A stretch of DNA of 64,000 bases, from assembly GCA_035510735.1 (NCBI GenBank), contig DATKGN010000006.1:1429-65428 (forward strand). Direction: 5' to 3'. Source of the DNA: Patescibacteria group bacterium. GTDB lineage: Bacteria; Patescibacteriota; Microgenomatia; UBA10105; UBA927. Shown here piece after piece: positions 709 through 15,408 of the stretch. Positions within the stretch are counted from its first letter, which is position 1. The number at the start of each line of letters is the position of its first letter. The translations under genes were made by a program, and so were the position numbers. The notes beneath the pieces were generated by a model. That model was not told where the DNA came from and searched no databases. It saw only the letters and a list, made by a program, of their open reading frames with translations.

Positions 709-2949
709 ATGAAACTTACAGACAACGAAAAACGAGATGTAATTAAATATTTAGAGGCAGGAAAGCCACTTCCTGAAAAATATCGTTTTCTTCTTTTCGA
801 TGACGATCGTGAGGTTGAACTCGTATGGAACGGCAAAACAGACGAAGTAACAAATGTAGTATTGCCTTTTCAAACAATAGAACAGATTGACGAACCAAGG
901 AGCGACGCTAAATTTGGCATGCAGGAGACACTTTTTGATACTTCAGGCAGACAGATAACAGGATGGACTAATAAACTTATATGGGGCGATAACAAACTTA
1001 TTCTTTCCTCATTAAAGAATGGGCCTCTTAGGAAAGAAATTGAAGCGCAGGGTGGGTTAAAACTTATCTATATTGATCCTCCGTTTGATGTTGGCGCGGA
1101 CTTTTCTATGGATATTGAAATTGGTGGCGAAGAATTCATTAAAAAACCATCAGTGATCGAAGAAATTGCTTACCGCGACACTTGGGGCAAAGGTGCAGAC
1201 AGCTTTATTTCAATGATTTATGAGCGTCTTCGACTAATGTATGATTTGCTAGCAGAGAATGGAAGTATTTATATTCATTGTGACTGGAGAGTAAATTCAT
1301 ATATGCGTTTAGTTTTAGATGAAATTTTTAATTATTTTATTGCTGAAATTGCTTGGCAAAAATTAAGATCAGTCAAATCTCAAAGCTTACATTTTTCAAA
1401 TATTAAAGACAGTATATTTATATATTCAAAATCAGATAGGTATGTGTTTAACCCTCAATTTACACCAAAGGACGAAAAATTATTAGAGACTCATTACCGT
1501 CATATTGAAGCGGAGACGGGGCGTCGTTATAACCTTGCTGATTTTACACAAAATGGGAGCGGTCAACCTAGAAAGTTTGGAGAGAGAATTATTTCACCGC
1601 CACCAAATAAGCATTGGATTTGGAGTCAAGAAAAAATTGATGAGGGTATTAAAAATGGAATGATTATGTTTTCAAAAACTGGTACACCGTATGTAAAAAG
1701 GTATTTTGATACAGGTGAGGGCACCAGAGTTGGAGATATTTGGGATGACATTTTTCCAGTTAATCAAGTCGCCGCAGAAAGACTAGATTATCCAACTCAA
1801 AAGCCCGAACTACTTCTGGAAAGAATTATTAAAGCATCTTCTAATGAAGGTGATCTTGTTGCAGATTTTTTCTGTGGATCTGGAACTACACTAGCAGTAG
1901 CAGAGCGATTAGGTAGGAAATGGATTGGTGCTGATTTGGGAAAGTTTGGAATTCATACTTCAAGGAAAAGATTAATTGGTGTTCAACGGGAGCTTAAAAA
2001 AGAAGGAAAAGATTTCCGGGCGTTTGAAATATTAAATGTCGGAAGATATGAAAGGGAGAACTTTTTAGCGGTTAATGATGATTTGCGCACAGAAGAAAGA
2101 GAAAAACAAGCTGAACGAAAAGAAAAAGAATTCGTCAAACTAATACTTTCTGCATACAAAGCAGAACCTGTTGAAGGCTTTATAAATATTTCAGGTAAAA
2201 AACGAGATCGTTTGGTTGCAGTTGGCCCGATAAGTACTCCCGTCTCCTCAAAACTTATTCGGGATATTGTGAGTGAATGTAAAGATAAAAAACTCACGAA
2301 AGTTGATGTACTTGGTTTTGATTATGAGATGGGGATGGACCTACAGGAATATAAAGATCAGGGAATTGATATTGTTTTCCGAATAATACCAAGAGAAGTG
2401 TTTGATAAAAAGGCGGTTGAAAAAGATCAAGTCAAGTTTTACGACGTAGCCTACATAGTAGCAAAACCAATAATAAAAGGGAAAGCGAATAGTAAAGAAT
2501 TATCGATTGAATTAACTGACTTTTCAGTATTTTACAATCAGGACGCAACAGAAGAAACAACAGAAGCACTTCGTCCTGGTGGTGAAAAAGTTATTGTTGA
2601 AAATGGACAGGTAGTAAAAATATCAAAAGATAAAGCCTCAGAAATCGTGTCAAAGGAAATTTTGACTAAAAAGTGGAGTGATTGGATTGATTATTGGGCA
2701 GTGGATTATAATTTCGCAAGTAGAAAAGAAATTGTTGCCGAAATTGATAAAGATGGTAACACTATTGAACGCTGGACTGGCGATTACATTTTTGATAATG
2801 AATGGCAGAGCTTTAGAACCAAGAAAAACAGGAACCTTGAGTTAGTTTCAGCGCCAAAAGAAGTTACCAAAGGCACTTATAAGGTGGCTGTAAAGGTTGT
2901 AGACATATTTGGCAATGACACAACAAGAGTTATGGAGGTGACTGTTTAA
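709..2949 (+). CDS. mod: Type III restriction-modification Mod subunit, N6-adenine DNA methyltransferase (beta class)
   Basis: Motif IV DPPF (IYIDPPFD) precedes motif I FxGxG (ADFFCGSGTT), the beta-class order typical of Type III Mod; res gene follows 1 nt downstream. Confidence 0.85.
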   Translation: MKLTDNEKRDVIKYLEAGKPLPEKYRFLLFDDDREVELVWNGKTDEVTNVVLPFQTIEQIDEPRSDAKFGMQETLFDTSGRQITGWTNKLIWGDNKLILSSLKNGPLRKEIEAQGGLKLIYIDPPFDVGADFSMDIEIGGEEFIKKPSVIEEIAYRDTWGKGADSFISMIYERLRLMYDLLAENGSIYIHCDWRVNSYMRLVLDEIFNYFIAEIAWQKLRSVKSQSLHFSNIKDSIFIYSKSDRYVFNPQFTPKDEKLLETHYRHIEAETGRRYNLADFTQNGSGQPRKFGERIISPPPNKHWIWSQEKIDEGIKNGMIMFSKTGTPYVKRYFDTGEGTRVGDIWDDIFPVNQVAAERLDYPTQKPELLLERIIKASSNEGDLVADFFCGSGTTLAVAERLGRKWIGADLGKFGIHTSRKRLIGVQRELKKEGKDFRAFEILNVGRYERENFLAVNDDLRTEEREKQAERKEKEFVKLILSAYKAEPVEGFINISGKKRDRLVAVGPISTPVSSKLIRDIVSECKDKKLTKVDVLGFDYEMGMDLQEYKDQGIDIVFRIIPREVFDKKAVEKDQVKFYDVAYIVAKPIIKGKANSKELSIELTDFSVFYNQDATEETTEALRPGGEKVIVENGQVVKISKDKASEIVSKEILTKKWSDWIDYWAVDYNFASRKEIVAEIDKDGNTIERWTGDYIFDNEWQSFRTKKNRNLELVSAPKEVTKGTYKVAVKVVDIFGNDTTRVMEVTV

Positions 2950-2950
2950 T

Positions 2951-5659
2951 ATGGCACTACACAAGGATTTTCCTCAAGACCCATATGTAATACTCGACCC
3001 GAGTATTAGATGGTTTCCGGCAGAGGAAGATTTGCGTGAAAAGGGAGGGCTAGAAAAATTACTTCCCCCATTGGTCGCTGATTTGCGTATTAAGGTAAAA
3101 GGCTGGAGAGATAAACATTATGAGGGAGCAAACGATACTTCTAGAGCTCTACTTAATTGGTGGTTTAAAGAAGAACATATTATTTACGACCAACATGGAA
3201 CCGCTTCGAAATTCCAATACTATTTTGCCCAACGGGAAGCGTTGGAAACAGTTATATGGCTTTATGAAGTTGCCAAAGTAAAAGATAAATATGATCTTAT
3301 TCGCTATAACTCCACAGGCGTGTTAAGTGCCGGAATGTTTACCGAAGACTGGTTGCGTTTTGTAATTAAAATGGCAACCGGCGCTGGGAAGACAAAAGTC
3401 ATGAGTTTACTTATCGCTTGGGCATATTTTCATAAAAAGTATGAACAGGACTCTCGCCTGGCAAAAAACTTTCTTTTAATTACACCCAACGTCATCGTGT
3501 TTGAAAGAATTAAAAATGATTTCGAGGGATTAAAAATCTTTTTTTCTGATCCGGTTTTACCTGAAAACGGATATCAAGGACAAAATTGGCAAGATGATTT
3601 CCAAGTGACATTACATCTGCAGGACGAGATAAAAACTATTTCTGATACAGGGAATATATTTTTGACCAACATCCACAGAGTATTCGAAGGAAATATCAAA
3701 GATGCTAGTTTGGATGATGAGGATACCTCTTCATATTTTTTGGGTCATAAACCGGTCACAAAAACAAACGATTCAACAGTCGATTTGGGAATGATTGTCC
3801 GTGATATTGATGAACTAATTGTTATCAATGATGAAGCCCACCATATTCATGATGAGAACATGGCTTGGTATAAATCGATATTAGATATCGACAACAGGCT
3901 AAAACAAAAAGGTTCGGGACTTGCTTTGCAACTGGATATGACAGCAACGCCAAAGAAGAATGATGGCTCGATATTTGTGCAAACGATAACGGACTATCCC
4001 CTTGTTGAGGCCATTCATCAAAGAATTGTCAAAAATCCTGTTATTCCTGACGCCGCCAGTCAAGGGAAACTAAAAGAGAATCAAAGCGCACTGTTTAGTG
4101 AAAAATATCGTGATTACATTAATCTCGGAATCGAGGAATGGCGTAAAACCTATGAGACCCTGAAACCTATGGGTAAGAAGTCAATTCTTTTTATCATGAC
4201 TGATGATACTAAAAACTGTGATGAGGTTGCTGAGTACATAAAGACAAGTTTTTTTGACTTGAAAGATGCAGTTCTGACCATTCATACCAATAAAAGCGGT
4301 GAGATATCTGAAAGTGTTACCGGTAAAAATATCGATGAATTAAATTTACTCAGAAAACAGGCCAATGAAATCGATAGTTGGGAAAGTCCTTTCAAAGTGA
4401 TTGTTTCCGTCATGATGCTGAAAGAAGGCTGGGATGTAAAGAATGTCACTACAATTGTCGGTCTTCGACCTTACGCTGCCGATTCCAAAATTCTTCCGGA
4501 ACAAACACTAGGACGTGGTCTCAGAAGGATGTTTTTTGGACAAAGCGATGTCGAAGAATATGTCAGCGTAATTGGTACACCAATGTTCATGGAGTTTGTG
4601 GAGTCGATTAATAGAGAGGGTGTTATTTTGGAAAGAAGAGAAATGGGAGAAGGATCTAAGGCGATTGCCCCAACAGTCATTGAAGTTGATAAAGAAAATC
4701 CTAATAAAAACATTGAAAAATTGGATATCGAGATTCCGGTTATGACCCCAAGAATACAAAGAGAATATAAAAATCTCGCGAGTTTAGATGTTTCCTTGTT
4801 TGGTAACCCTAAAGTTAAAGTTAAAACTTTTACTGAGGAAGAAAAACGGGAAATTGTATTTAAAGACGTAGTTGATGAAAAAACACACCACACGACTGTT
4901 CTGACTGGTGACGTGGAACCTGATTACAGAAGTGTCGTTGGTTTCTTTGCTCAAGCAATAATGCGTGAATTACGTCTGTTTGGTTGTTACGATATTTTAT
5001 TTGGAAATGTTAAAGATTTTATTCAGAATTATTTGTTTGAGACTCCGGTTGATTTGGAAGATCTAAATGTTCTGAGAAATTTATCAGAAGTTGAGTACAT
5101 AAAGCTCATTAAAGATTCTTTTAAAAAGGCAATAAACAACCTAACTGTTCAAGATAGTGGCGATACAGAAATCAAGAACTACATTAAAGTTAGTGAATCA
5201 CGACCGTTTGTTGTTAATGATAAGGCATACTTATTACCCAAGAAATCCGTTTTCAATAAAATTGTTGGTGATAGTAATTTTGAACTAACTTTTGCTGATT
5301 TCATTGAGAATTGTGACGATGTAATTTCCTTCTCAAAAAACTTTCAAAATAAGGAAGCTAGTGCTTTGAGAATCGAATATAAAAACTCGGAAGGTTTTAT
5401 TGCCACTTATTATCCGGACTTTTTTGTGAAAAAGGACGATAAGACTGTTTATATAGTCGAAACAAAAGGTCGCGAGGAAGAGGACGATAAATTGAAATTC
5501 GAAAGATTGCAAAAGTGGTGTGGGGATGTAAACAACCGGCAAACCAGAGTGGAATATAAAGCTTTATACATTAAGCAGGAAGAATGGGAAAAATACAAAC
5601 CAAAAAGTTTTGATGAGACAGTGAGGTTATTTAGTAGATCAATTGATAATAATGCATGA
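2951..5659 (+). CDS. res: Type III restriction enzyme Res subunit (SF2 helicase + C-terminal PD-(D/E)xK endonuclease)
   Basis: Walker A MATGAGKTKV, DEAH box VINDEAHH, helicase motif VI-like QTLGRGLRR, C-terminal YPDFFVK..IVETKG nuclease motif; adjacent to mod. Confidence 0.85.
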   Translation: MALHKDFPQDPYVILDPSIRWFPAEEDLREKGGLEKLLPPLVADLRIKVKGWRDKHYEGANDTSRALLNWWFKEEHIIYDQHGTASKFQYYFAQREALETVIWLYEVAKVKDKYDLIRYNSTGVLSAGMFTEDWLRFVIKMATGAGKTKVMSLLIAWAYFHKKYEQDSRLAKNFLLITPNVIVFERIKNDFEGLKIFFSDPVLPENGYQGQNWQDDFQVTLHLQDEIKTISDTGNIFLTNIHRVFEGNIKDASLDDEDTSSYFLGHKPVTKTNDSTVDLGMIVRDIDELIVINDEAHHIHDENMAWYKSILDIDNRLKQKGSGLALQLDMTATPKKNDGSIFVQTITDYPLVEAIHQRIVKNPVIPDAASQGKLKENQSALFSEKYRDYINLGIEEWRKTYETLKPMGKKSILFIMTDDTKNCDEVAEYIKTSFFDLKDAVLTIHTNKSGEISESVTGKNIDELNLLRKQANEIDSWESPFKVIVSVMMLKEGWDVKNVTTIVGLRPYAADSKILPEQTLGRGLRRMFFGQSDVEEYVSVIGTPMFMEFVESINREGVILERREMGEGSKAIAPTVIEVDKENPNKNIEKLDIEIPVMTPRIQREYKNLASLDVSLFGNPKVKVKTFTEEEKREIVFKDVVDEKTHHTTVLTGDVEPDYRSVVGFFAQAIMRELRLFGCYDILFGNVKDFIQNYLFETPVDLEDLNVLRNLSEVEYIKLIKDSFKKAINNLTVQDSGDTEIKNYIKVSESRPFVVNDKAYLLPKKSVFNKIVGDSNFELTFADFIENCDDVISFSKNFQNKEASALRIEYKNSEGFIATYYPDFFVKKDDKTVYIVETKGREEEDDKLKFERLQKWCGDVNNRQTRVEYKALYIKQEEWEKYKPKSFDETVRLFSRSIDNNA

Positions 5660-5729
5660 AATTTACTCGGAAAGCTTAAGAGATCCTTTGAGAGGTTTTT
5701 AAATATTTCAAGTGAATGACTGAATTAAA

Positions 5730-6740
5730 ATGATTAAAAAAATAGACAACAAAGAACTGAGAGAAATAATTCAAAGTGGCCACCTAAACGTGCTTGTTGG
5801 TTCTGGGTGTTCTTTAAATTACCTATCAACTTTAAAGGGTATAGAAGATAAGATGAACGTCGAAGCAACCAAAGAATCCGCTCAAAAAGATTATTACAAG
5901 TTGATAAAAAAATCTAAAGCAATCTTATATGAATCACTTGAAACGAATGCTGCTGAAAAGATAAAATTAAGCGACACAAAGGAAAATTATGATTCATTTC
6001 TTACGTTCTGGGCAGACACTGTATCCAAAAGATCTCTTCATATAGTCAATAAACAGGTAAACTTTTTTACAACTAATTTTGACATGTTTATGGAAGATTC
6101 TTGCGAAAGATTAGGGGTTCCTTACAATGATGGGTTCACTGGGCAAATCAATCCGATTTTCAGCGTTGCAAATTTTAATAAAATACAGAAATATAAGAGT
6201 TTACAGTTTGATAACACTTCTGACATACCTCTATTTAATCTAATAAAGCTACATGGATCTGTCTCATGGGTTGCAAAAGGTGAGAAAATTACCTACTCAG
6301 ACAGTTCTCATATCCCAGATAATTTGGCTACCAAATCAGGATCTGATTTTAGTAAACAATACAGAAAAATTGCAGTGATTAATCCTAATGCAGAAAAACA
6401 TTTTGAAACAGTTCTTGATACAAACTATGCTTCAATGTTAAGAAAGTTTACTCTAGAACTTGAGAAGGAAAACAGTGTTTTGGTCGTTGTTGGTTTTTCT
6501 TTAGAGGATAAACATATCAAAGATCTTCTCTATGGTGTCATGAAATCAAATCCTACTTTGATAGTAGTCTATTTTTCTTACTCTCAGTATGACGAGACGC
6601 TCGACAAACTAGAAGAAAAAAAGAATTCAAATTTATATATAATTTCACCTGAAAATAATTTTTCTTTTGAAAAAAGTGTTAAATACCTCTCTGAAGTTTT
6701 TGCACCCCAAAGAGACGATATACAACATGATGAAGAATAG
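5730..6740 (+). CDS. SIR2-like (SIR2_2 family) defence protein, partner of HerA
   Basis: NVLVGSGCS, TTNFD (cf. conserved TTNYD) and KLHGSVSW motifs of the SIR2_2 family; 3' end overlaps the HerA-like gene. Confidence 0.75.
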   Translation: MIKKIDNKELREIIQSGHLNVLVGSGCSLNYLSTLKGIEDKMNVEATKESAQKDYYKLIKKSKAILYESLETNAAEKIKLSDTKENYDSFLTFWADTVSKRSLHIVNKQVNFFTTNFDMFMEDSCERLGVPYNDGFTGQINPIFSVANFNKIQKYKSLQFDNTSDIPLFNLIKLHGSVSWVAKGEKITYSDSSHIPDNLATKSGSDFSKQYRKIAVINPNAEKHFETVLDTNYASMLRKFTLELEKENSVLVVVGFSLEDKHIKDLLYGVMKSNPTLIVVYFSYSQYDETLDKLEEKKNSNLYIISPENNFSFEKSVKYLSEVFAPQRDDIQHDEE

Positions 6741-8637
6741 CTTCAATCTACAAGATACCCTAGTCAGCAACTCAATATTTGTTATTGGGAGTGTCTTCAG
6801 TGTTAAGGGAAAAGATATTGTAATCAAGGTTAACAAAGATAAAAACCTTCCTCACCTGTTTTTTAAGGGTAAAACAATTAAGAATGTGTCTGTTGGGCTA
6901 TCTAATTATGTAAAAATAACCAAGGGCTTTACTGAGATTATATGCAAGGTTGAAGGTGAATTTTTAGAGGAAGATAAATTTCAAGCAAGTAAAAAATACA
7001 TAAACGAAAAACAAAAAATAGAACGATTCCTCAATGTATCGGTTTTTGGTTTTTATGATAGTGATAATCGATTCCAACATGGCATTAAGGAAATGCCATT
7101 AATCGGTAGTGAGTGTAAATTGCTCACAAGAGATGAATTTGAAATTTTACATCAATTATCTAATGGAACTGAGTTATCAATAAATCTAGGATCACTAATC
7201 GATGAGGAAACCCAAAGCATTAACCTCTCTATAAAGAAATTATTTGCTGGACATATTGGCATATTTGGTAATACCGGATCTGGAAAATCGAATACCTTAG
7301 CAAGGATGTATACAGAGTTATTTAAGTTGCCAAATTTAAATGATAACTTTAATAAAAAATCTAAGTTTATTTTTATAGATTTTAATGGAGAATATTCTAA
7401 AGATAGTGATGATCAAATTTTAACAGCAAATAAAGTTGTCTATAAATTACGAACAAAGGATAATAATGGCTCCAAATACCCAATTTCCAAAGCAGAAATT
7501 GAAAAAATGGAACTTTTATCCATATTGCTTAATGCTACTGAAAAAACACAACAACCATTCTTACATAGAGCTATAGACAGAGACTGGTATGACAACGACA
7601 ACGATGACCATCACAAGGAAGTTCAAAGTATAAACCAAAAGTTAAAAGACATCCTTTTGATGAAAAATAAAGAGTTTAATGTTCCTTTTTTGAAGAAATA
7701 CGTAAAAGACTTTGAACAACTAGGTTTTAAAGTCGTTAATGATAACAAAAATATTGACGATTTGAAATATCATGGTAATGATAATTGTACTTTCTATACT
7801 GGTCAAGGAACTACTGCTGTTTACGCAGATACAAACGAAGGTCATTTTATAGGGGTTGATGGATATTTTAACGTATCTATCTCTACAACTGAAGGTTTGA
7901 GTGACTTGCAAAAAATACAATTCAAAATAATAGACCAATATTACTTTGAGATTTTAAATGGATATGCAAATGATGAACACATCAATCCCCTTATGGGTAG
8001 ATTGAAAAAGCGATTTGACATGTTATCTAAGGTAGTTGAAATTAAGGACTCTTCTCAAACCAACGGAGAAAATGTTGATGTAACACCTTGTAATATAGAG
8101 GTAATTGATCTTAAAAATGTCAATTTTGAACTTAAAAAAGTTGTTCCATTACTTATTTGTAAAACAAACTACGATGAACAAAAAAATAGAAGGGATACCG
8201 ATAAAGAGAATTCTCTTCATATCATAATTGATGAGGCACATAGCATTTTGTCGGAAAACTCAAACAGAGAGGCTGAATCCTGGAAGGATTATAGACTCGA
8301 AACATTCGAGGAAATTATAAAAGAAGGTAGAAAGTTTGGAGTTTTCCTTACAATTGCAAGCCAACGACCGTCTGACATATCGCCAACTATTATTTCGCAG
8401 TTACATAATTATTTTATTCACAAATTAATGAATGAAAATGATTTGAAATCGATTAATAGAGCTGTTAGTTATTTAGATAAACTTTCCTTCGATTCAATAT
8501 CAAATCTTTCTACGGGATGCTGTTTCATCGCAGGACAAATGACACAATTTCCATTGTCAGTAAAAGTAAAACTGCTTGATAAAAATATTCGACCACAAAG
8601 TGAAACAATCGACTTAGATAAATTATGGAAACAATAA
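6727..8637 (+). CDS. HerA/FtsK-like ATPase of SIR2-HerA system
   Basis: Walker A GNTGSGKSNT, Walker B IIIDEAHS, C-terminal ASQRPSD region typical of HerA (DUF87). ORF track starts at TTG 6667; ATG at 6727 gives a 14-nt overlap with the SIR2 gene. Confidence 0.75.
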   Translation: MMKNSFNLQDTLVSNSIFVIGSVFSVKGKDIVIKVNKDKNLPHLFFKGKTIKNVSVGLSNYVKITKGFTEIICKVEGEFLEEDKFQASKKYINEKQKIERFLNVSVFGFYDSDNRFQHGIKEMPLIGSECKLLTRDEFEILHQLSNGTELSINLGSLIDEETQSINLSIKKLFAGHIGIFGNTGSGKSNTLARMYTELFKLPNLNDNFNKKSKFIFIDFNGEYSKDSDDQILTANKVVYKLRTKDNNGSKYPISKAEIEKMELLSILLNATEKTQQPFLHRAIDRDWYDNDNDDHHKEVQSINQKLKDILLMKNKEFNVPFLKKYVKDFEQLGFKVVNDNKNIDDLKYHGNDNCTFYTGQGTTAVYADTNEGHFIGVDGYFNVSISTTEGLSDLQKIQFKIIDQYYFEILNGYANDEHINPLMGRLKKRFDMLSKVVEIKDSSQTNGENVDVTPCNIEVIDLKNVNFELKKVVPLLICKTNYDEQKNRRDTDKENSLHIIIDEAHSILSENSNREAESWKDYRLETFEEIIKEGRKFGVFLTIASQRPSDISPTIISQLHNYFIHKLMNENDLKSINRAVSYLDKLSFDSISNLSTGCCFIAGQMTQFPLSVKVKLLDKNIRPQSETIDLDKLWKQ

Positions 8638-8673
8638 TTTAAATAAAGAGTCCATCTTAAAAGATTTCTTTGA

Positions 8674-9453
8674 GTGTATAAAAGTAATTTAAATAATATG
8701 TCCAAATACTACAATCCCAACCGAACACGTAATTTATATAACTCCGATTCTTTGGAGACTTTCCGTATCAGCCGGAGTAAAATTGACCTTTTTATCAATT
8801 GTCCTCGTTGTTTTTATCTTGATCGTAGGTTAGGAGTCGCTCAACCACCTGGATATCCATTTTCTCTCAATACTGCTGTCGATAAGCTTCTCAAGAAGGA
8901 ATTTGACAGGCATAGAGCCAATGGGACAGCCCATCCCCTAATGAAAGTTTATGGAATTGATGCCGTGCCTTTGTCACACGAAAAAATAAATGAATGGCGG
9001 GATTCACTTAGAGCAGGGATAACTTTTAAGATTGATAGCGAAAATGTAGTCATAACCGGCGGGGTTGATGATGTCTGGGTCAAACCCGATGGTGAATTTA
9101 TCATTGTTGATTACAAAGCTACTTCCAAAGAAGAAGAAGTGACGTTAGATGCTGACTGGCAAATCGGCTATAAACGCCAAATGGAGATATACCAGTGGTT
9201 ATTCCGAAAGAATGGCTTTCGCGTCTCCACAACTGGTTATTTTGTGTATTGTAATGGCAATACTGACAAAGAAGCTTTTGACGGTAAACTGGAATTTGAT
9301 ATTAAGATTATTCCATATGTTGGTGATTATTCCTGGGTCGAGAAGACCGTCCATGAGGCTATTGAATGTTTAAAAAGTGATACTCTTCCGGAATCCGGAG
9401 ACGATTGTGATTACTGTAAATATCGAAAAGCCGTTAGCCGTTTTGAAAAATAG
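8674..9453 (+). CDS. Cas4-like PD-(D/E)xK nuclease with Cys cluster (DUF83-like), stand-alone
   Basis: N-terminal CPRCFYL, VDDVW..IVDYKAT nuclease core, YKRQMEIYQWL and C-terminal CDYCKY, the Cas4/AddB-like Fe-S nuclease pattern. GTG start at 8674; alternative ATG at 8698. No cas1/cas2 or CRISPR array nearby. Confidence 0.6.
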   Translation: MYKSNLNNMSKYYNPNRTRNLYNSDSLETFRISRSKIDLFINCPRCFYLDRRLGVAQPPGYPFSLNTAVDKLLKKEFDRHRANGTAHPLMKVYGIDAVPLSHEKINEWRDSLRAGITFKIDSENVVITGGVDDVWVKPDGEFIIVDYKATSKEEEVTLDADWQIGYKRQMEIYQWLFRKNGFRVSTTGYFVYCNGNTDKEAFDGKLEFDIKIIPYVGDYSWVEKTVHEAIECLKSDTLPESGDDCDYCKYRKAVSRFEK

Positions 9454-9456
9454 ATC

Positions 9457-9816
9457 ATGGACAAAGAACATCATGATAGTTTTGGAGATTTCTTAGGAGC
9501 ACTTTTCCAATTATTTTTACTAGGTGCGATTATATATTTTCTGTTTTTAGTCATTTGGGGAATTTTCAAGTTAGTTTTGTGGTTACTCAAACGTATTTGG
9601 CAATTAATAACGTGGGTATGGTTTCAGATTAGAAAACACGCCGTCTTACAATACAGAATAAATAGGCTAAACTTGGCCACTCATGCTTTTCTTTTGAGAC
9701 ACGGCAAGATTAATCGAATTATGTTATGTATCCGTACCTATTTCTTAATCTTTTGGACAAGTCGACCATCCGAGTTATTTAATAAACTGAGCAAATCAAT
9801 AGATACGAACGTTTAA
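9457..9816 (+). CDS. small Trp-rich membrane protein, hypothetical
   Basis: ATG 3 nt after preceding stop; strongly hydrophobic N-terminal segment (LGALFQLFLLGAIIYFLFLVIWGIFKLVLWLL). Confidence 0.45.
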   Translation: MDKEHHDSFGDFLGALFQLFLLGAIIYFLFLVIWGIFKLVLWLLKRIWQLITWVWFQIRKHAVLQYRINRLNLATHAFLLRHGKINRIMLCIRTYFLIFWTSRPSELFNKLSKSIDTNV

Positions 9817-9844
9817 AAAATATTGACCGTATTAATTAATATTT

Positions 9845-10357
9845 ATGGCAATAATTAGTAATAAATACTCACTGAAAAAAGCTTGTTTAAGAAATTCAAA
9901 AAACTTACTTAAGGAATCAACAAGATTACTTAACCGAAAAAAGTATGCGTGGGCTACCTTTCTAGCTATAACCTCCTTCGAAGAAAGTCAAAAGTTAGGT
10001 CTTTTACACATGCTTGAGGCTAATTACTTATCTGAATCTAAATTTAATAAATTTTGGCGAAGTCATGAGTATAAAATAAGGTCAAAAGATGCACGTATAA
10101 GATTTAATTTCGATACCAGCGAAAAAATAAAACCTACGTTAGTTTTAGGATCAAAACAAGAAGCTCATGAGGTTATGAATATGCGAGAAAGTTGTTTATA
10201 CGTCGATTTTGCCGAAAAGTCGATATCTGAGCCTCTCAAAATCAACATAGCGATTGCTATACAATATATCAATGAAGCAACCAGAGAGCTAGAGTCCGCT
10301 AACTTTTTAGAGTTGTTACAAAAAAGGTTACATAGAGTACTTAAAGTTAAAAAATAA
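9845..10357 (+). CDS. AbiV-like abortive-infection family protein (tentative)
   Basis: N-terminal helix pattern C..N...LL.E...LL......A.FLA..S.EE..K, as I recall for the AbiV family; size 170 aa fits. Confidence 0.4.
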   Translation: MAIISNKYSLKKACLRNSKNLLKESTRLLNRKKYAWATFLAITSFEESQKLGLLHMLEANYLSESKFNKFWRSHEYKIRSKDARIRFNFDTSEKIKPTLVLGSKQEAHEVMNMRESCLYVDFAEKSISEPLKINIAIAIQYINEATRELESANFLELLQKRLHRVLKVKK

Positions 10358-10361
10358 AACT

Positions 10362-11138
10362 ATGAATGACGATCAATTAAGTTTAACAAAGAAGAAATTT
10401 CCGATACTGTTTTCCTTTTCTCAAGATTACACAGGCAGTGATTACAATGACATCAGGCAATTATTTAGAGATAAGCCAGTCTTAATTTTTGGTGAAGACT
10501 ACTGGTCAAAATATGAGCAATCCCTTCAATCTTTAACTGAAAAAGACAAACAATATTTGTTCGGTAAACTTAAAACCTTAACTAAAAGAATTGATGAAAA
10601 GGCGGGTTGGCCTCATTTCGAAGAAAGACTAAATGAAGCATTGGCTTATAGATATCTTCAAAAAAATGGTTACAAAAAAATACGGTTTATTGACGAAAAC
10701 ACTAAGAATGGACGAAAACCAGATTTAGAAATCCTAAATGCGAATGACTCACTTAATGGACTAGTGGAGGTAAAAACCATTAGATTCTCCCTTGACGAAT
10801 ATGCAGCCGTCAAAAAGGAATTAGAAACAGGTAAAGGAAGATTTTTGCCAATGCAAGTGAACAAAAATCTTTATAAAAAAATTACCGATGATCTAGATAA
10901 AGCAGTAAAACAACTGACTTACCAGGGTTCCGCATCAATATCTTTACGGAGAATTTATCTTTTTCTTAATTTAGACGCCGGAGTCTTAATGGATCTCATA
11001 TTTACCCCAGATAGCGATTTACAAAACTTTATTTGTCAAACTAAAAAAACTTTGGATAAGAATAATCATATTGACTTAAAAACGTATTTACTTGGTGGTA
11101 TTCCCGGAGAGCCAAAAGAGCTCAAATGCAAAGGCTAA
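10362..11138 (+). CDS. hypothetical protein with PD-(D/E)xK-like motif
   Basis: GRKPDLEIL...GLVEVKTI resembles a PD..(D/E)xK restriction-endonuclease-fold core; starts 4 nt after the AbiV-like gene. Confidence 0.4.
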   Translation: MNDDQLSLTKKKFPILFSFSQDYTGSDYNDIRQLFRDKPVLIFGEDYWSKYEQSLQSLTEKDKQYLFGKLKTLTKRIDEKAGWPHFEERLNEALAYRYLQKNGYKKIRFIDENTKNGRKPDLEILNANDSLNGLVEVKTIRFSLDEYAAVKKELETGKGRFLPMQVNKNLYKKITDDLDKAVKQLTYQGSASISLRRIYLFLNLDAGVLMDLIFTPDSDLQNFICQTKKTLDKNNHIDLKTYLLGGIPGEPKELKCKG

Positions 11139-11165
11139 TCCTGCGTTGATGTATACTATTCCTGT

Positions 11166-11390
11166 ATGCTTAACCCACAGGATGAAAAGACTAGGCAGGA
11201 CATTGCGTCGAAATTGAAAAAGTACCGTCTCAAAAAAGGCTTGTTTCAAACCGATGTAGCTAAGAAAGCTGGTTTGAACAGCAATTTTTACTCGAAAGTT
11301 GAACGCGGTGATGCTATTCCATCTGTGATTACACTTAAAAAGATTTTGGGGGCGCTTGGGGTTAAATCTTCAGAAATTCTCTCGTTTTAA
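11166..11390 (+). CDS. XRE-family helix-turn-helix transcriptional regulator
   Basis: Classic HTH_3 pattern LKKYRLKKGLFQTDVAKKAGLNSNFYSKVERGDAIPSVITLKKI. Confidence 0.75.
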   Translation: MLNPQDEKTRQDIASKLKKYRLKKGLFQTDVAKKAGLNSNFYSKVERGDAIPSVITLKKILGALGVKSSEILSF

Positions 11391-11608
11391 TTCTTCTTCA
11401 TTTCTATCTCGTGCAGAAGTTCTTTGTATTCCTTTTCAAGTTCTTCCGGTTCAAAATGAGCCATGGTGTGATAATGGGCTTTGAGATGCTCCAGTAAAGC
11501 CATCGCCATTTCCGGTGTAGCATGTTCGGGGTCAGTGGCTTTCAAAAATTTGAGAACACCGTCGATATCTTTTTCGTTTAACTGATACCCACCTGTCTTT
11601 GTCGTCAT
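11387..11608 (-). CDS. small hypothetical protein downstream of serine recombinase
   Basis: 73-aa ORF, helical/acidic composition, co-oriented 8 nt downstream of the recombinase. Confidence 0.35.
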   Translation of the reverse strand: MTTKTGGYQLNEKDIDGVLKFLKATDPEHATPEMAMALLEHLKAHYHTMAHFEPEELEKEYKELLHEIEMKKN

Positions 11609-11616
11609 GCGAGTTA

Positions 11617-13086
11617 TTATACCTCAAATAAGGGATTAATTTTTGGATAGCTCAATCCGGGATAATTCCAAACGAAACCGCGTGGAAATATGGTACTTAA
11701 AATTGCTTTTTGATTATCAACGGATATATGCATATATGTGTTGTATATATTCTCTAGATTGGAATTCATATATGTAATACAGGTTGAAAGCGTATATTCC
11801 TGTAGAAAAGATTTTTTAATCGATAACTTTATTCGGTCAATATTATCGCTCAATAGCGCGTTTTGCTCGCAAAATACCTCGTCTGTATAGAGACCGGATA
11901 AATGTTTATGGACGAGGTTCGTTCGCATAGCGATAAGTTTGCCTACGAGTTGTTCTCTTTTTGCCTTATACATCCTGATTTTCGAGTACCGTCTTTCATA
12001 TTCCTCCTGTAGGAGTTTATAAATAATCACACGACCAAGCTTGGACAGCTTCATTCTCGTTAATAGTGACTTTAATAACTTATGGAGCTTTTCGGCCGGT
12101 ACATACGGCGAATGACACAATTGCGATTTGTAACACCAATAATATGGATACTTCTTCAAGTGACCACTACACCATGAGCCGGTAAATCCGAGTCCGCATT
12201 TTCCGCACTTTACTATTCGACGTAATGGAAAATCAACATTCGGTGGATTTCGAAGCACCAAGGATGGTTTATTATGTCGACCGTCGAGTATTGCCTGAAC
12301 TTTCTCAAACAGCTCTTTTGAAACCATAGGCTCATGTTGCCCGTGGACCTCTTCGTTGTATCGCTTGGAAACAAGAAAACCGGCATAAAATTTTGAGCGA
12401 AATATCCGGTGTACCGTTTGACGCCGGATAAGATACTTTTGGTTGTTAATAGTGGTTCGTAATCCCCAAGAATTCATGATGTTCGTCATCTCACGAAGTG
12501 ACTTTGTACCCGTGGCCATCAATTCCCAGGCTTTTTTCACCTGATCCCAGACTTTGGTATCTTTAAAGACATATCCTTCATGGCGGATATATCCTAATTG
12601 TGCCTTTCCGGAACAAAGCAATCCTGATTGAAACCGTGCGTGCATACCGTTTCTTGCACGCTCACTTTTCATCTCATTATCAAGTTGTGCAATTCCTGCA
12701 TAAAAATTACCAATGAATTTGCCCATAGGAGTATCATCAACCGGCTCTGTTGCTGAAATAAGTTTAATTCCCATTCTATTCAGTTTCTCCTTTATGATGA
12801 GGTAGTCTGTCATCTGCCGAGACAAACGATCGGTTTTGTAAAATACAACAGCCTGAACATCTTTTGTATGCCGTCGGCAATATTCGAGAAGTTTGATCAG
12901 TTCAATTCTACCTGTGATAGTTTTTGCGGATTTTCCTTCTTCACGATATACCTGCGTAACGACATAACCTAACCGATCAGTTTCGCGCCTGCACACTTCT
13001 TCCTGTGTGCCCATAGAATAGTTATCGACCTGTTCCTCTGTTGATACCCGAAGATAAAGAATTGCTTGTTTTTGTGTTAGTTTCAT
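11617..13086 (-). CDS. large serine recombinase (resolvase/integrase family)
   Basis: N-terminal resolvase domain with catalytic Ser (YLRVSTEEQ), DRLSR motif, recombinase domain and C-terminal zinc ribbon (CGKCG...WCSGH...YWCYKSQLC). Confidence 0.85.
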   Translation of the reverse strand: MKLTQKQAILYLRVSTEEQVDNYSMGTQEEVCRRETDRLGYVVTQVYREEGKSAKTITGRIELIKLLEYCRRHTKDVQAVVFYKTDRLSRQMTDYLIIKEKLNRMGIKLISATEPVDDTPMGKFIGNFYAGIAQLDNEMKSERARNGMHARFQSGLLCSGKAQLGYIRHEGYVFKDTKVWDQVKKAWELMATGTKSLREMTNIMNSWGLRTTINNQKYLIRRQTVHRIFRSKFYAGFLVSKRYNEEVHGQHEPMVSKELFEKVQAILDGRHNKPSLVLRNPPNVDFPLRRIVKCGKCGLGFTGSWCSGHLKKYPYYWCYKSQLCHSPYVPAEKLHKLLKSLLTRMKLSKLGRVIIYKLLQEEYERRYSKIRMYKAKREQLVGKLIAMRTNLVHKHLSGLYTDEVFCEQNALLSDNIDRIKLSIKKSFLQEYTLSTCITYMNSNLENIYNTYMHISVDNQKAILSTIFPRGFVWNYPGLSYPKINPLFEV

Positions 13087-13265
13087 ACGTCTATATTAGT
13101 AAGTAGTTCATCAAGTGTTTTTCCTTCAAATATTTGCTGTTCTACAGTATTGAGCCAAACATCAACCAAATATTGTAGTTCGGAAATAGTTGTTTGAATT
13201 TCGTCGTCATTCATCTGAATGCCGTCTTTCTGTAACAGTTCGCGGATTTCGTCTAATTTATCCAT
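13083..13265 (-). CDS. small acidic hypothetical protein (possible recombination directionality/accessory factor)
   Basis: 60-aa ORF overlapping the recombinase start by 4 nt, 3 nt downstream of the PLD gene. Confidence 0.35.
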   Translation of the reverse strand: MDKLDEIRELLQKDGIQMNDDEIQTTISELQYLVDVWLNTVEQQIFEGKTLDELLTNIDV

Positions 13266-13268
13266 AGT

Positions 13269-13766
13269 TCAATAAATAAATCTACTTAATTTTAGATACT
13301 CAAACATTTCTTGTGACATACTGCTACTTTGGATTCTGCGCATTATTTCACGGCTGCACGTTTGGGAGAGAATGTTGAGGCTACCTTCCCAGAGTACTTT
13401 CCGATCAATGATAGCCAGTTTCCGGTGGGAGTATTCGTTGCTGATTAATACTTGGATTCCCATTGTTTCAAATTGCCTGATCTCACATTCAGCCTGTCGT
13501 TTGAGATTAGGATCGTGGTCGTCCGGATCACGGGTAATAACGTAAACTTTGACTTTCCTTCGAACCAGCTCCGCAAAGACCGCTGTCAGATGAAATACGC
13601 GTTGGGAGGTAATGAATGGGCTTTCGATGATAACTTCCGTTCTGGAGCGTTTAAGATCGGCTATAAACCGTTTGTAGAACGTGGTCTCGTCGAACAGTTG
13701 AGATTGGACAAGGTCGGGTGACAGATGGAACAGTTTTTTAACACCAGACAGGACAAGGTTATTCAT
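13269..13766 (-). CDS. phospholipase D-family (single HKD) nuclease, Nuc-like
   Basis: Exact HxKx4Dx6GSxN motif (HRKLAIIDRKVLWEGSLN); 165 aa like dimeric Nuc/BfiI-type endonucleases; RBS AAGGAGG 4 nt upstream of ATG. Confidence 0.7.
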   Translation of the reverse strand: MNNLVLSGVKKLFHLSPDLVQSQLFDETTFYKRFIADLKRSRTEVIIESPFITSQRVFHLTAVFAELVRRKVKVYVITRDPDDHDPNLKRQAECEIRQFETMGIQVLISNEYSHRKLAIIDRKVLWEGSLNILSQTCSREIMRRIQSSSMSQEMFEYLKLSRFIY

Positions 13767-13947: not shown

Positions 13948-14142
13948 TTAATAGGGTTGGGTAATACTCGTTGGTTCTATAACCATAAATCTACTTAGAG
14001 GATTCGTAAATACTTCCGGAATATTATCTGGCACACACCACCATCCGCAGGTAAGAGTATTTCCTTTCGGACCAATTTCACCCAAACTCTTCGGTAAAAC
14101 GGTGCCGATCTCATTTAGAAAATCCATATCTTCCTGAGTCAA
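13948..14142 (-). CDS. hypothetical, probably the 3' part of a frameshifted PRTase-like gene
   Basis: TTG-start 64-aa ORF; its frame stays open and protein-like upstream into the 216-aa ORF region. Confidence 0.3.
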   Translation of the reverse strand: MTQEDMDFLNEIGTVLPKSLGEIGPKGNTLTCGWWCVPDNIPEVFTNPLSRFMVIEPTSITQPY

Positions 14143-14789
14143 TACATCCTCAAGTAACGGAATTTTTTGAGAATCTGCAACCCATACGTCAACATAATTC
14201 TCTTTAGCCTTTTCTCTGCCCAGGCACTTGAATACAATACGTATGCGTGAACTTTAGGATATCGTCCTTTACCAGAAGCCTCCCAGACAAGATCGAGTAT
14301 CTGATTCTTGACATGGGCAGTAGAAATTAACCAGTCTTCAATAATGTATAAATTGGTTTTTCCTCTGATCATTTTCGGTGTCACGCTAAGCCCTTCGCCT
14401 GTTGATATTTCGCTTGCTGCTTTTTTCAACCCCAGACCGCATAATTGTTCGTAAATCCAATGGCTACTCCTGCTAACAGGAAAATAGATGTAATGAAATG
14501 GCCCCTCTTGAGCTTTTTCGGTTAATGCAACCGCCATTTTTTTTAGATTCGTATCAAATGATTCTTTACTGATAAAATGGAATCCGTCTGCTAATCTATT
14601 AAGAAAAAGCTCCGGTGGGTTTGCTTCTAATATCGCCGTGGCACCCTGAACACTCCTGTCATAGGTTGTTGGAATATGTTTGTCTAGCAGAATCTGCGCA
14701 AATTGTTGAGGAGTTAAAGGCTCATTTGGAATAGGCAGTCGATCAGCTAGTCTACCTGAGTTCTCTACTCTGTAGGTTTGTTCTGCCAT
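14139..14789 (-). CDS. phosphoribosyltransferase (PRTase type I)-like domain protein, possibly disrupted
   Basis: NLYIIEDWLISTAHV resembles the PRPP-binding motif (cf. pyrE in this window, NVLVIEDLVSTGKS) but with Gly/Lys replaced. Confidence 0.35.
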   Translation of the reverse strand: MAEQTYRVENSGRLADRLPIPNEPLTPQQFAQILLDKHIPTTYDRSVQGATAILEANPPELFLNRLADGFHFISKESFDTNLKKMAVALTEKAQEGPFHYIYFPVSRSSHWIYEQLCGLGLKKAASEISTGEGLSVTPKMIRGKTNLYIIEDWLISTAHVKNQILDLVWEASGKGRYPKVHAYVLYSSAWAEKRLKRIMLTYGLQILKKFRYLRMY

Positions 14790-14907: not shown

Positions 14908-15408
14908 TTAAAATCTCTCAAGAAAGCCGAAATGATCGTATTTATTAAGTAGACTATTAACACCTCTTTCGCCCTCGCTGAGACCGTCAATCTTTTCTAA
15001 AGGTGGTAACTCGAGAGTTGTTTTATGGGGTCGTAATCCCGATTCAATAACTACGTTTTCGGCAGCTAATATATGAAAACTTGTGATCTGCTTACTCTCT
15101 TTTAGTATACCTTGATTCATAGACCTTTCGAGCGCATGGATGAGACGCGAATAATATTCCATAAGCTGGATTGAATTTTGATCTCCACTGCTTGCCAATT
15201 CATCGACAACTCCTACCCCTCCACTCTCATGGATAAGAAGGGAAACGACGGAAAGTTCCTCAAAACGAGGATGACGAAGAATTTCAAGTATTCGGGGATA
15301 CGGATCTGACATTCCATCTCTTTTAACGTTTCTAGAATAGCGTTTTATGGTGCTAACTGTTGTAGTGCCATCAAAGTTTGGAAACGCAAGGTCAATTTGC
15401 TTACGCAT
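14908..15408 (-). CDS. hypothetical protein
   Basis: 166-aa ORF, no recognised motif. Confidence 0.35.
   Translation of the reverse strand: MRKQIDLAFPNFDGTTTVSTIKRYSRNVKRDGMSDPYPRILEILRHPRFEELSVVSLLIHESGGVGVVDELASSGDQNSIQLMEYYSRLIHALERSMNQGILKESKQITSFHILAAENVVIESGLRPHKTTLELPPLEKIDGLSEGERGVNSLLNKYDHFGFLERF

Follow-up and report, generated by a model that had tools for sequence, protein, structure and literature searches.

Whether two adjacent genes in a Patescibacteria genome work together as one defence cassette, or merely lie side by side, is the question raised by positions 9845 to 11138 of the 64,000-nucleotide stretch of DNA analyzed here (the window; contig DATKGN010000006.1). The source names of identical proteins identify a Patescibacteria metagenome-assembled genome (MAG) as the source of this window. 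The first gene, abiV (9845..10357, + strand), encodes a 170-aa AbiV-family HEPN protein, a predicted metal-independent ribonuclease (RNase). The second, here called B (10362..11138, +), encodes a 258-aa protein of an unnamed family, composed of a helical N-terminal domain (approximately residues 1–73) and a C-terminal nuclease-type core of the PD-(D/E)xK superfamily. An earlier reading of the letters of this stretch, the original prediction, had proposed the two as a candidate abortive-infection or toxin module, and the coordinates of the open reading frames (ORFs) and the 4-nt gap between abiV and B that it gave were found to be correct. Our tentative answer is that the two genes constitute an operonic RNase-plus-nuclease cassette of the abortive-infection or toxin-antitoxin (TA)-like type, in which B would serve as a generic accessory or second-effector nuclease.

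The first gene encodes a member of the AbiV family

The 170-aa protein matched the Pfam model PF18728 (HEPN_AbiV) with an E-value of 1.8e-20 and 74.1 bits (cutoff 27.1), residues 11–142 being aligned to profile positions 6–146 of 155. It also matched NCBIfam TIGR04498 (E = 2.4e-17, 63.6 bits, cutoff 27) and the PADLOC model for AbiV (E = 5.7e-10). The assignment to the AbiV family, originally made from the look of the N-terminal helices, is thus borne out by hidden Markov model (HMM) searches. A profile built from six AbiV homologues in addition matched the crystal structures 9bj5 and 9bj7 with an E-value of 1.2e-5.

In the alignment with the lactococcal protein, H74 (nt 10064–10066) and K77 correspond to H93 and K96 of the segment 91-RNHKSKH-97, and R114-E-S-C-L-Y119 (R114 at nt 10184–10186) corresponds to lactococcal R-E-S-S-L-Y. 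H74, K77, R114 and Y119 were invariant in all six homologues. The residues typical of the family are therefore present, namely the alternative conserved histidine (H74) and the basic residue of the degenerate Rx4-6H motif (R114). This arrangement matches the AbiV pattern described by Anantharaman et al. (2013, PMC3710099), in which the canonical histidine is lost and an alternative conserved histidine is found between helices 2 and 3.

AbiV had been taken, in the original prediction, to act as a single gene. That view, for a long time the usual one of this abortive-infection factor, is outdated. The lactococcal protein is an RNase with rRNA-degrading activity in vitro whose expression by itself is toxic (bioRxiv 10.1101/2024.05.05.592566), and recent work showed that it requires an upstream RNA antitoxin, abiV2 (bioRxiv 10.1101/2024.05.05.592566; reviewed in PMC13064643). 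In the window, abiV starts only 28 nt after the ORF before it. Upstream of abiV, the three known loci that carry both abiV and B aligned poorly, the folding z-score upstream of abiV in the window was −0.30, the search for an abiV2-like RNA gave no match in Rfam, and repeat finding revealed no tandem or short-range repeats of the type III antitoxin kind near abiV. By alignment, RNA folding, Rfam and repeat analysis together, a conserved or unusually structured upstream RNA was not detectable in the three loci; an unconserved one may be present.

B represents a new family with a predicted PD-(D/E)xK fold

The peptide on which a nuclease had been proposed, GRKPDLEIL...GLVEVKTI, is present in B, with P120-D121 at nt 10719–10724 and E136-V-K138 at nt 10767–10775. 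A regular expression for the PD...(D/E)xK pattern was satisfied by 150 of 158 B-family proteins; the motif did not arise by chance. In an alignment of 100 diverse sequences, the members of which are about 20–66% identical to B, E136, K138, Q184 and D205 were invariant and P120, D121, V137 and T139 were conserved in at least 90%. E92 was invariant in the close B family.

AlphaFold2 models of B reached a predicted local distance difference test score (pLDDT) of 82.9 with 10 sequences, and a pLDDT of 94.4 with a predicted template modelling (TM) score of 0.91 with 100 sequences. In the latter model the core starts with a helix (84–101), continues with strands 106–109, 122–125 and 131–140 and with helices 144–156 and 168–188, and ends with a strand at 195–202. 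E92 is located in the first of these helices, D121 opens the second strand (β2, 122–125), E136-V-K138 lies in the third (β3, 131–140), Q184 is part of helix 168–188 and D205 follows the last strand. From the secondary structure of the model and the conservation, the predicted catalytic core was delimited to nt 10635..10976 (+). As modelled, this is the classical α-β-β-β-α-β fold of PD-(D/E)xK nucleases, and the active site is probably intact; we accept both because the topology of the model, the conserved residues and a bias toward this superfamily among the Foldseek matches and sub-threshold Pfam matches all point the same way. The proposal of a 258-aa protein with a nuclease-like core around PD..EVK is upheld by the conservation of the motif in the 100 sequences and by the modelled fold.

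No Pfam, NCBIfam or PADLOC model matched B. Among the 100 family members, recurrent sub-threshold Pfam matches were to PD-(D/E)xK families only (NOV_C in 6/100, Hjc in 4/100, RecU and RE_NgoBV), the best Pfam E-value, 0.003, falling short of significance. The best Foldseek match was YaeQ, with an E-value of 5e-3, a probability of 0.97 and TM-scores of 0.2–0.3. The leading matches in PDB and BFVD were mostly PD-(D/E)xK proteins as well: YaeQ, SfsA, BstEII, Mus81/XPF, Mrr, HamA, a Cas4-family protein and CdiA-CT. HMM searches of PDB sequences with small and large B profiles gave nothing meaningful, and no significant match of B, in sequence or in structure, to an established member family of the superfamily was obtained.

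A word-indexed search for B retrieved only 10 relatives. An exhaustive HMMER search with the profile of these 10 retrieved 619 representative clusters (made at 50% identity) at E ≤ 1e-3, 417 of them at E ≤ 1e-10. All public names listed for the family read "hypothetical protein", with the exception of one fusion that JGI calls "antitoxin HicB" after its N-terminal domain. We conclude that B belongs to a new, unnamed family within the PD-(D/E)xK superfamily and not to a named one. Membership of B in Shedu, Hachiman or Cas4 was considered and rejected, since none of the respective models matched. A conserved antisense ORF inside B (10670–10864) was likewise dismissed as a gene, its conservation being a by-product of that of B.

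abiV and B are predicted to be coupled

Four nucleotides, AACT (10358..10361, +), lie between the stop codon of abiV and the start codon of B, and neither a Shine-Dalgarno sequence nor a promoter-like site was detected there. Judged from the sequence, a junction of this kind implies co-transcription of B with abiV, and it makes translational coupling by termination and reinitiation probable. A spacing of 4–5 nt before B was likewise observed in four further loci (L001, L011, L008 and L009), and the coupled B genes in general lack both a promoter and a Shine-Dalgarno sequence of their own. The B genes of L004 and L010, which stand alone, carry a TATAAT-like box 5–12 nt before their ATG, which suggests that these solo transcripts would be leaderless.

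The pair is retained in a small clade

abiV and B were found together in three independent loci, namely the window, L001 (with L002 and L095) and L011. Relative to the window, the AbiV proteins are 67% (L001) and 59% (L011) identical and the B proteins 66% and 52%, the values for L001, L002 and L095 all being about 66–67%; the two proteins diverge in parallel across the three loci. In a neighbour-joining tree, the AbiV-linked B proteins are monophyletic with a bootstrap value of 90. The window and L001 have only AbiV and B in common, their flanks being unrelated. Because the B proteins form one clade, because the divergence is parallel and because no other gene is shared, we conclude that the pair arose once, persisted while diverging substantially and travels as a two-gene cassette.

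The close Patescibacteria subfamily of B (48–66% identity) occurs in nine distinct contexts, and a metagenome scan for close relatives of B yielded one new context only. Upstream of B, a Fic gene is found in L008 at a distance of 5 nt, and an 87-aa ORF in L009 at a distance of 4 nt, behind an AAA_14 ATPase gene. In L096 (P0011), a 223-aa domain is fused in frame to B, and the B genes of L004, L006 and L010 stand alone. The 87-aa ORF of L009, the 223-aa N-terminal domain of L096 and a 219-aa ORF that follows B in L001 had no match in Pfam. Among the AbiV homologues, B follows only the three closest (at least 58% identity). The suggestion that a nuclease-like partner is conserved with AbiV therefore holds in part. 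B does co-occur with AbiV in three independent loci, at a distance of 4–5 nt, but it is neither specific to AbiV nor obligate, as AbiV is also found without B, and B with Fic or on its own.

The wider B family is linked to toxin-antitoxin modules by fusions

To cover the wider family, genome contigs were scanned with a 25-sequence subset of the alignment. This gave 78 loci, which belong to Acidobacteriota, Alpha-, Delta- and Gammaproteobacteria, Nitrospirota, Verrucomicrobiota and Saccharimonadales; the limits of the B gene could be set in 76 of them. In these 76 loci B is mostly a solo gene with heterogeneous neighbours, many of them housekeeping genes, with scattered transposases, integrases and HEPN/MNT pairs. 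Of the neighbours sampled across the 78 loci, not one gave a hit to the Pfam model of AbiV, and BLAST comparisons showed no resemblance to the AbiV of the window.

B was also encountered as the C-terminal part of fusion proteins in Acidobacteriota, Proteobacteria and other soil bacteria (L015, L018, L019, L029, L050, L054, L062, L070 and L099). Three Acidobacteriota loci (L015, L018 and L019) encode Fic-B fusions, L029 a PIN_4-B fusion, and P0149 and P0269 PIN-B fusions. DUF2442-B fusions are present in four further loci and in P0033/P0253, and in L062 a DUF4160 gene precedes the fusion; DUF4160 and DUF2442 form a described TA pair (PMC12065111). A HicB-like-B fusion is preceded by a 72-aa HicA-like gene, whose match to HicA is sub-threshold (E = 2.5e-4). 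Through this Rosetta-stone pattern of fusions, a nuclease family that lacks annotation is connected with TA systems, and we describe B as a portable domain that is found attached to a toxin, to an antitoxin or to neither.

The genomic setting is a defence island

In the window, abiV, B and a gene for a helix-turn-helix (HTH) regulator close a co-directional array of defence genes that spans 709–11390; that these genes share one array with SIR2-HerA genes had been predicted and is confirmed. The array has a GC content of 30–38%, compared to 45–50% beyond 16 kb in the window. It belongs to a recombinase-associated defence island that this Patescibacteria genome acquired by horizontal transfer. 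Neither abiV nor B was present in the plasmid, phage and IMG/VR collections searched. A 22-nt imperfect inverted repeat around the cassette (9819–9840 and 11823–11844) was dismissed, since an 11-nt seed such as it contains would be expected to turn up by chance within 17 kb.

The array begins with a type III restriction-modification system on the + strand (709–5659), which is complete and consists of Mod (709–2949) and Res (2951–5659). It continues with SIR2 (5730–6740, +) and HerA (approximately 6667–8637, +); the HerA ORF, when read from a TTG start, overlaps the SIR2 stop codon by 74 nt, and a later ATG is probably the true start. The possibility that AbiV and B are additional subunits of SIR2-HerA was rejected for want of co-occurrence elsewhere, no SIR2 or HerA gene lying beside B or this clade of AbiV in any other locus examined. 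Since AbiV and B are all that the window and L001 have in common, the cassette is independent of SIR2-HerA. The next gene, 36 nt past HerA, encodes a Cas4-like PDDEXK_1 protein (8674–9453, +; PDDEXK_1 E = 4e-15). It has no CRISPR context; a CPRC motif near the N terminus and a CDYC motif near the C terminus suggest an iron-sulphur cluster of the Cas4 type, and the protein could assist SIR2-HerA or form a unit of its own. Three nucleotides further on, a hydrophobic ORF of 119 aa (9457–9816, +) precedes abiV.

At the left edge of the island, a 125-aa ORF (80–457, −) encodes a protein 51% identical to a DUF2958 protein of L004 (2558–2884). This part of L004, from a Roizmanbacteria genome, resembles a conjugative element (relaxase, TraG/VirD4-like ATPase), and L004 also carries a B homologue. 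On the right side of the low-GC island, two ORFs without a Pfam match (14139–14789, −, 216 aa; 14908–15408, −, 166 aa) are situated before a PMT-family glycosyltransferase gene.

The regulator gene (11166..11390, +, 74 aa) starts 27 nt past B. Its product matched HTH_3 (E = 2.9e-13) and the PADLOC model "control protein" (E = 5.3e-11), in line with its earlier description as a Cro/C1-type (XRE) HTH protein. Its proposed place in a conserved module did not stand up to comparison. An XRE gene follows B only in the window lineage (the window and L094); the closest relative, L001, has the gene for the 219-aa protein at this position, and in L009 a 36%-identical XRE gene is found two genes upstream of B. 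In the window, the XRE gene adjoins the cassette without being a conserved component of it, and it may regulate the array or the neighbouring recombinase element locally.

Directly after the XRE gene follow, on the opposite strand, an ORF of 73 aa (11387–11608, −), a large serine recombinase gene (11617–13086, −) and the gene for a small PLD-like (PLDc_2) protein (13269–13766, −). The PLD-like protein is 47% identical to a protein of L096 (5103–5615, −) that is encoded convergently right after the B fusion gene. By eye, a DPEH motif is common to the 73-aa ORF of the window and a 74-aa ORF of L096 (4869–5093, −). The PLD gene and the small ORF, between which the serine recombinase gene is located in the window, may in both loci form a distinct pair of genes that moves along with B.

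Serine recombinase genes were observed at about 0.3–3 kb from B in 5/5 long Patescibacteria contexts (the window, L001, L004, L006 and L008), with coordinates of 11387–13265 (−) in the window, 9028–10794 in L004, 1718–3217 in L006 and 2356–3945 in L008. Among themselves the recombinases share only about 25% identity, and they differ in where they lie and in which direction they point with respect to B. At their 3′ ends, the recombinase genes of L004, L006 and L008 overlap a tRNA gene on the opposite strand (Ser, Pro and Gln, respectively), which suggests integrative elements that target tRNA genes. ARAGORN detected no tRNA in the window. The same program called a tRNA-Ser with an ACT anticodon in L001 (12522–12609) and L004 (10691–10780), which is unusual for bacteria and could be a mis-call or a peculiarity of the lineage.

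How could AbiV and B work together?

In the cassette that we tentatively favour, carried as cargo of the defence island, AbiV would act as a metal-independent RNase that degrades rRNA and shuts down translation in the infected cell, by analogy with its lactococcal relative. B, expressed through abiV, would provide a self-contained second unit in which a regulatory-looking helical N-terminal domain is joined to an apparently active, metal-dependent PD-(D/E)xK core. Such a unit might plug into varied toxin modules, AbiV in the window and Fic, PIN, HicA/HicB-like and DUF4160/DUF2442 modules elsewhere. What the analysis shows is the identity of the genes, the class of fold, the conserved catalytic residues, the geometry of the operon, the co-inheritance of the pair and the range of partners of B; both enzymatic activities with their substrates, toxicity, a role in defence and any interaction of AbiV with B, be it physical or functional, are inferred.

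Several findings weigh against it. In AbiV, the R91-x5-H97 spacing is not kept; R72 aligns with R91, but I78 occupies the position of H97, and R72 is not conserved in close homologues. R91-x5-H97 was required in Lactococcus cremoris AbiV by mutagenesis, although the same preprint points out that the family as a whole does not conserve it (Zhu 2024, bioRxiv 10.1101/2024.05.05.592566). As to B, no structural match was obtained at E < 0.001 and the TM-scores were 0.2–0.3, so that "nuclease" here means topology plus motif. Around B in the 76 wider-family loci, defence genes are not enriched. AbiV proteins of 50%, 41% and 36% identity to that of the window lack B, the next gene being a NUDIX gene, a convergent seryl-tRNA synthetase gene and a 57-aa ORF, respectively, and relatives of B occur alone or with other partners. 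In the alignment of the close family, the sequence of B, including the N-terminal domain, does not change with the upstream partner, and such partner-independent conservation argues against a specific AbiV-B protein interface. Finally, the known loci with both genes are three, all from one small clade, and their co-inheritance could reflect linkage alone. The partnership of AbiV and B is real but narrow, and obligate for neither gene.

In an alternative view, AbiV, with an undetected antitoxin of its own, and B are autonomous single-gene toxin or defence units that were joined once in an ancestor within the Patescibacteria and kept by linkage without cooperating. It is a possible explanation, albeit an unlikely one. 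The mostly solo occurrence of B among heterogeneous and often housekeeping neighbours, the −10 boxes of the solo genes in L004 and L010, the AbiV relatives without B and the indifference of the B sequence to its partner all fit it, and defence islands routinely stack unrelated systems, as the restriction-modification, SIR2-HerA and Cas4-like genes do here. Linkage alone, however, accounts poorly for a 4–5 nt spacing that was kept over approximately 35–48% protein divergence in three unrelated contexts, and for the loss of a separate B promoter in the coupled loci; the repeated fusion of B to toxin and antitoxin domains is also hard to square with a chance neighbourhood. A closer partnership would result if B were a protein antitoxin or sensor that replaces the abiV2 RNA, restraining the HEPN RNase and releasing it upon encounter with phage nucleic acid. 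Lactococcal AbiV does need an antitoxin (bioRxiv 10.1101/2024.05.05.592566), an upstream RNA that could serve as such was not detectable in the three loci, the downstream position of B and its predicted translational coupling would fix the stoichiometry, and B is attached elsewhere to toxins (PIN, Fic) as well as to antitoxins (HicB-like, DUF2442). We nevertheless regard this role as rather improbable. The invariant catalytic residues point to selection on an enzymatic activity that a simple binding antitoxin would not need, one conserved protein is unlikely to neutralize four unrelated toxin folds, no partner-specific divergence was seen, and most B genes have no toxin beside them. A broader version, in which B is a new and widespread nuclease-fold module that gates or triggers not only AbiV but also Fic, PIN, HicA-like and DUF4160 toxins, whether encoded separately or fused to them at the C terminus, appears to us equally doubtful.

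The remaining two possibilities draw on the neighbouring genes. It is very unlikely that AbiV and B are both toxins with the XRE protein as their antitoxin or dedicated regulator. The XRE gene does lie 27 nt past B on the same strand, its product has sub-threshold matches to HipB/Y4mF-type antitoxins and to control proteins of restriction-modification systems, and XRE genes are found near B in L009 (one) and L096 (two). In these two loci, though, they are upstream of B with other genes in between, and in L001 no XRE gene follows B; moreover, XRE-type HTH genes are ubiquitous in mobile islands, and that of the window abuts the convergent serine recombinase block, to which it may belong. Even less can be said for B as a maintenance or recombination nuclease of integrative elements with AbiV as co-resident cargo, which we consider extremely improbable. 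The serine recombinases near B in all five long contexts, three of which overlap a tRNA gene, would be in keeping with it. Their low mutual identity and variable position and orientation are not, no association with recombinases is seen in the wider B family, where 2 of 150 neighbours are integrases, and the fusion partners of B are TA domains and not recombination proteins. We therefore retain, tentatively, the cassette in which B serves AbiV as an accessory or second-effector nuclease.

Significance and comparison with known systems

The main interest of the locus lies in B, a sizeable unannotated family that is wired into several toxin-antitoxin architectures. Work on a single member would give hundreds of genes an annotation and could bring to light an accessory function shared by TA and defence systems. 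With AbiV hard-wired to a nuclease-fold protein, this clade offers in effect a natural test of the ways in which HEPN toxins are kept in check or strengthened. Should the doubtful gating role of B prove true, the result would be notable, namely a protein-gated AbiV system together with a general principle of TA activation. In addition, the locus enlarges the still short list of defence genes known from Patescibacteria.

The closest known system is that of Lactococcus cremoris, composed of abiV1 and abiV2 and resembling a type III TA system. The window protein is of the same family (PF18728/TIGR04498) and keeps H74 (equivalent to H93), K77 and the R-E-S-x-L-Y segment, and by analogy it would be expected to be an abortive-infection RNase that likewise blocks translation. 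It differs from the lactococcal protein in the isoleucine at the position of H97, in the low identity between the two (profile E = 1.2e-5) and in its host, a Patescibacteria MAG as opposed to a Firmicute. Upstream, the window has no detectable abiV2-like RNA; downstream, it has instead the gene for the 258-aa PD-(D/E)xK protein, predicted to be translationally coupled.

Within the PD-(D/E)xK superfamily, where YaeQ, SfsA, NOV_C/DUF3883 and Hjc are nearest, the predicted core of B has the same make-up, with the acidic residue that opens β2, the (D/E)xK motif in β3 and a conserved glutamate in the first core helix. What sets B apart is a helical N-terminal domain of its own, of about 75 residues, and the invariant Q184 and D205. 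Shedu SduA and Hachiman HamA are single-protein PD-(D/E)xK defence nucleases with variable N-terminal domains that are found in defence islands. Like these, B would combine a nuclease core with an N-terminal domain that is not catalytic and could serve in sensing or autoinhibition, and HamA is among its weak Foldseek matches. Unlike them, B has no PADLOC match and no helicase partner, and its wider family is not visibly concentrated in defence islands. The window pair shares with classical TA modules its geometry of two small genes in one operon and a mobile context, and elsewhere B is fused or adjacent to components of HicA/HicB, DUF4160/DUF2442, Fic and PIN modules. In comparison with these, B is an extra third element, and its partner in the window is an Abi-type HEPN protein for which no antitoxin was identified.

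The literature searched contained no paper on AbiV with a PD-(D/E)xK partner, nor on the B family. In summary, the locus does not represent a new category of system; it is an AbiV system with a protein partner from a new family of a well-known nuclease superfamily.

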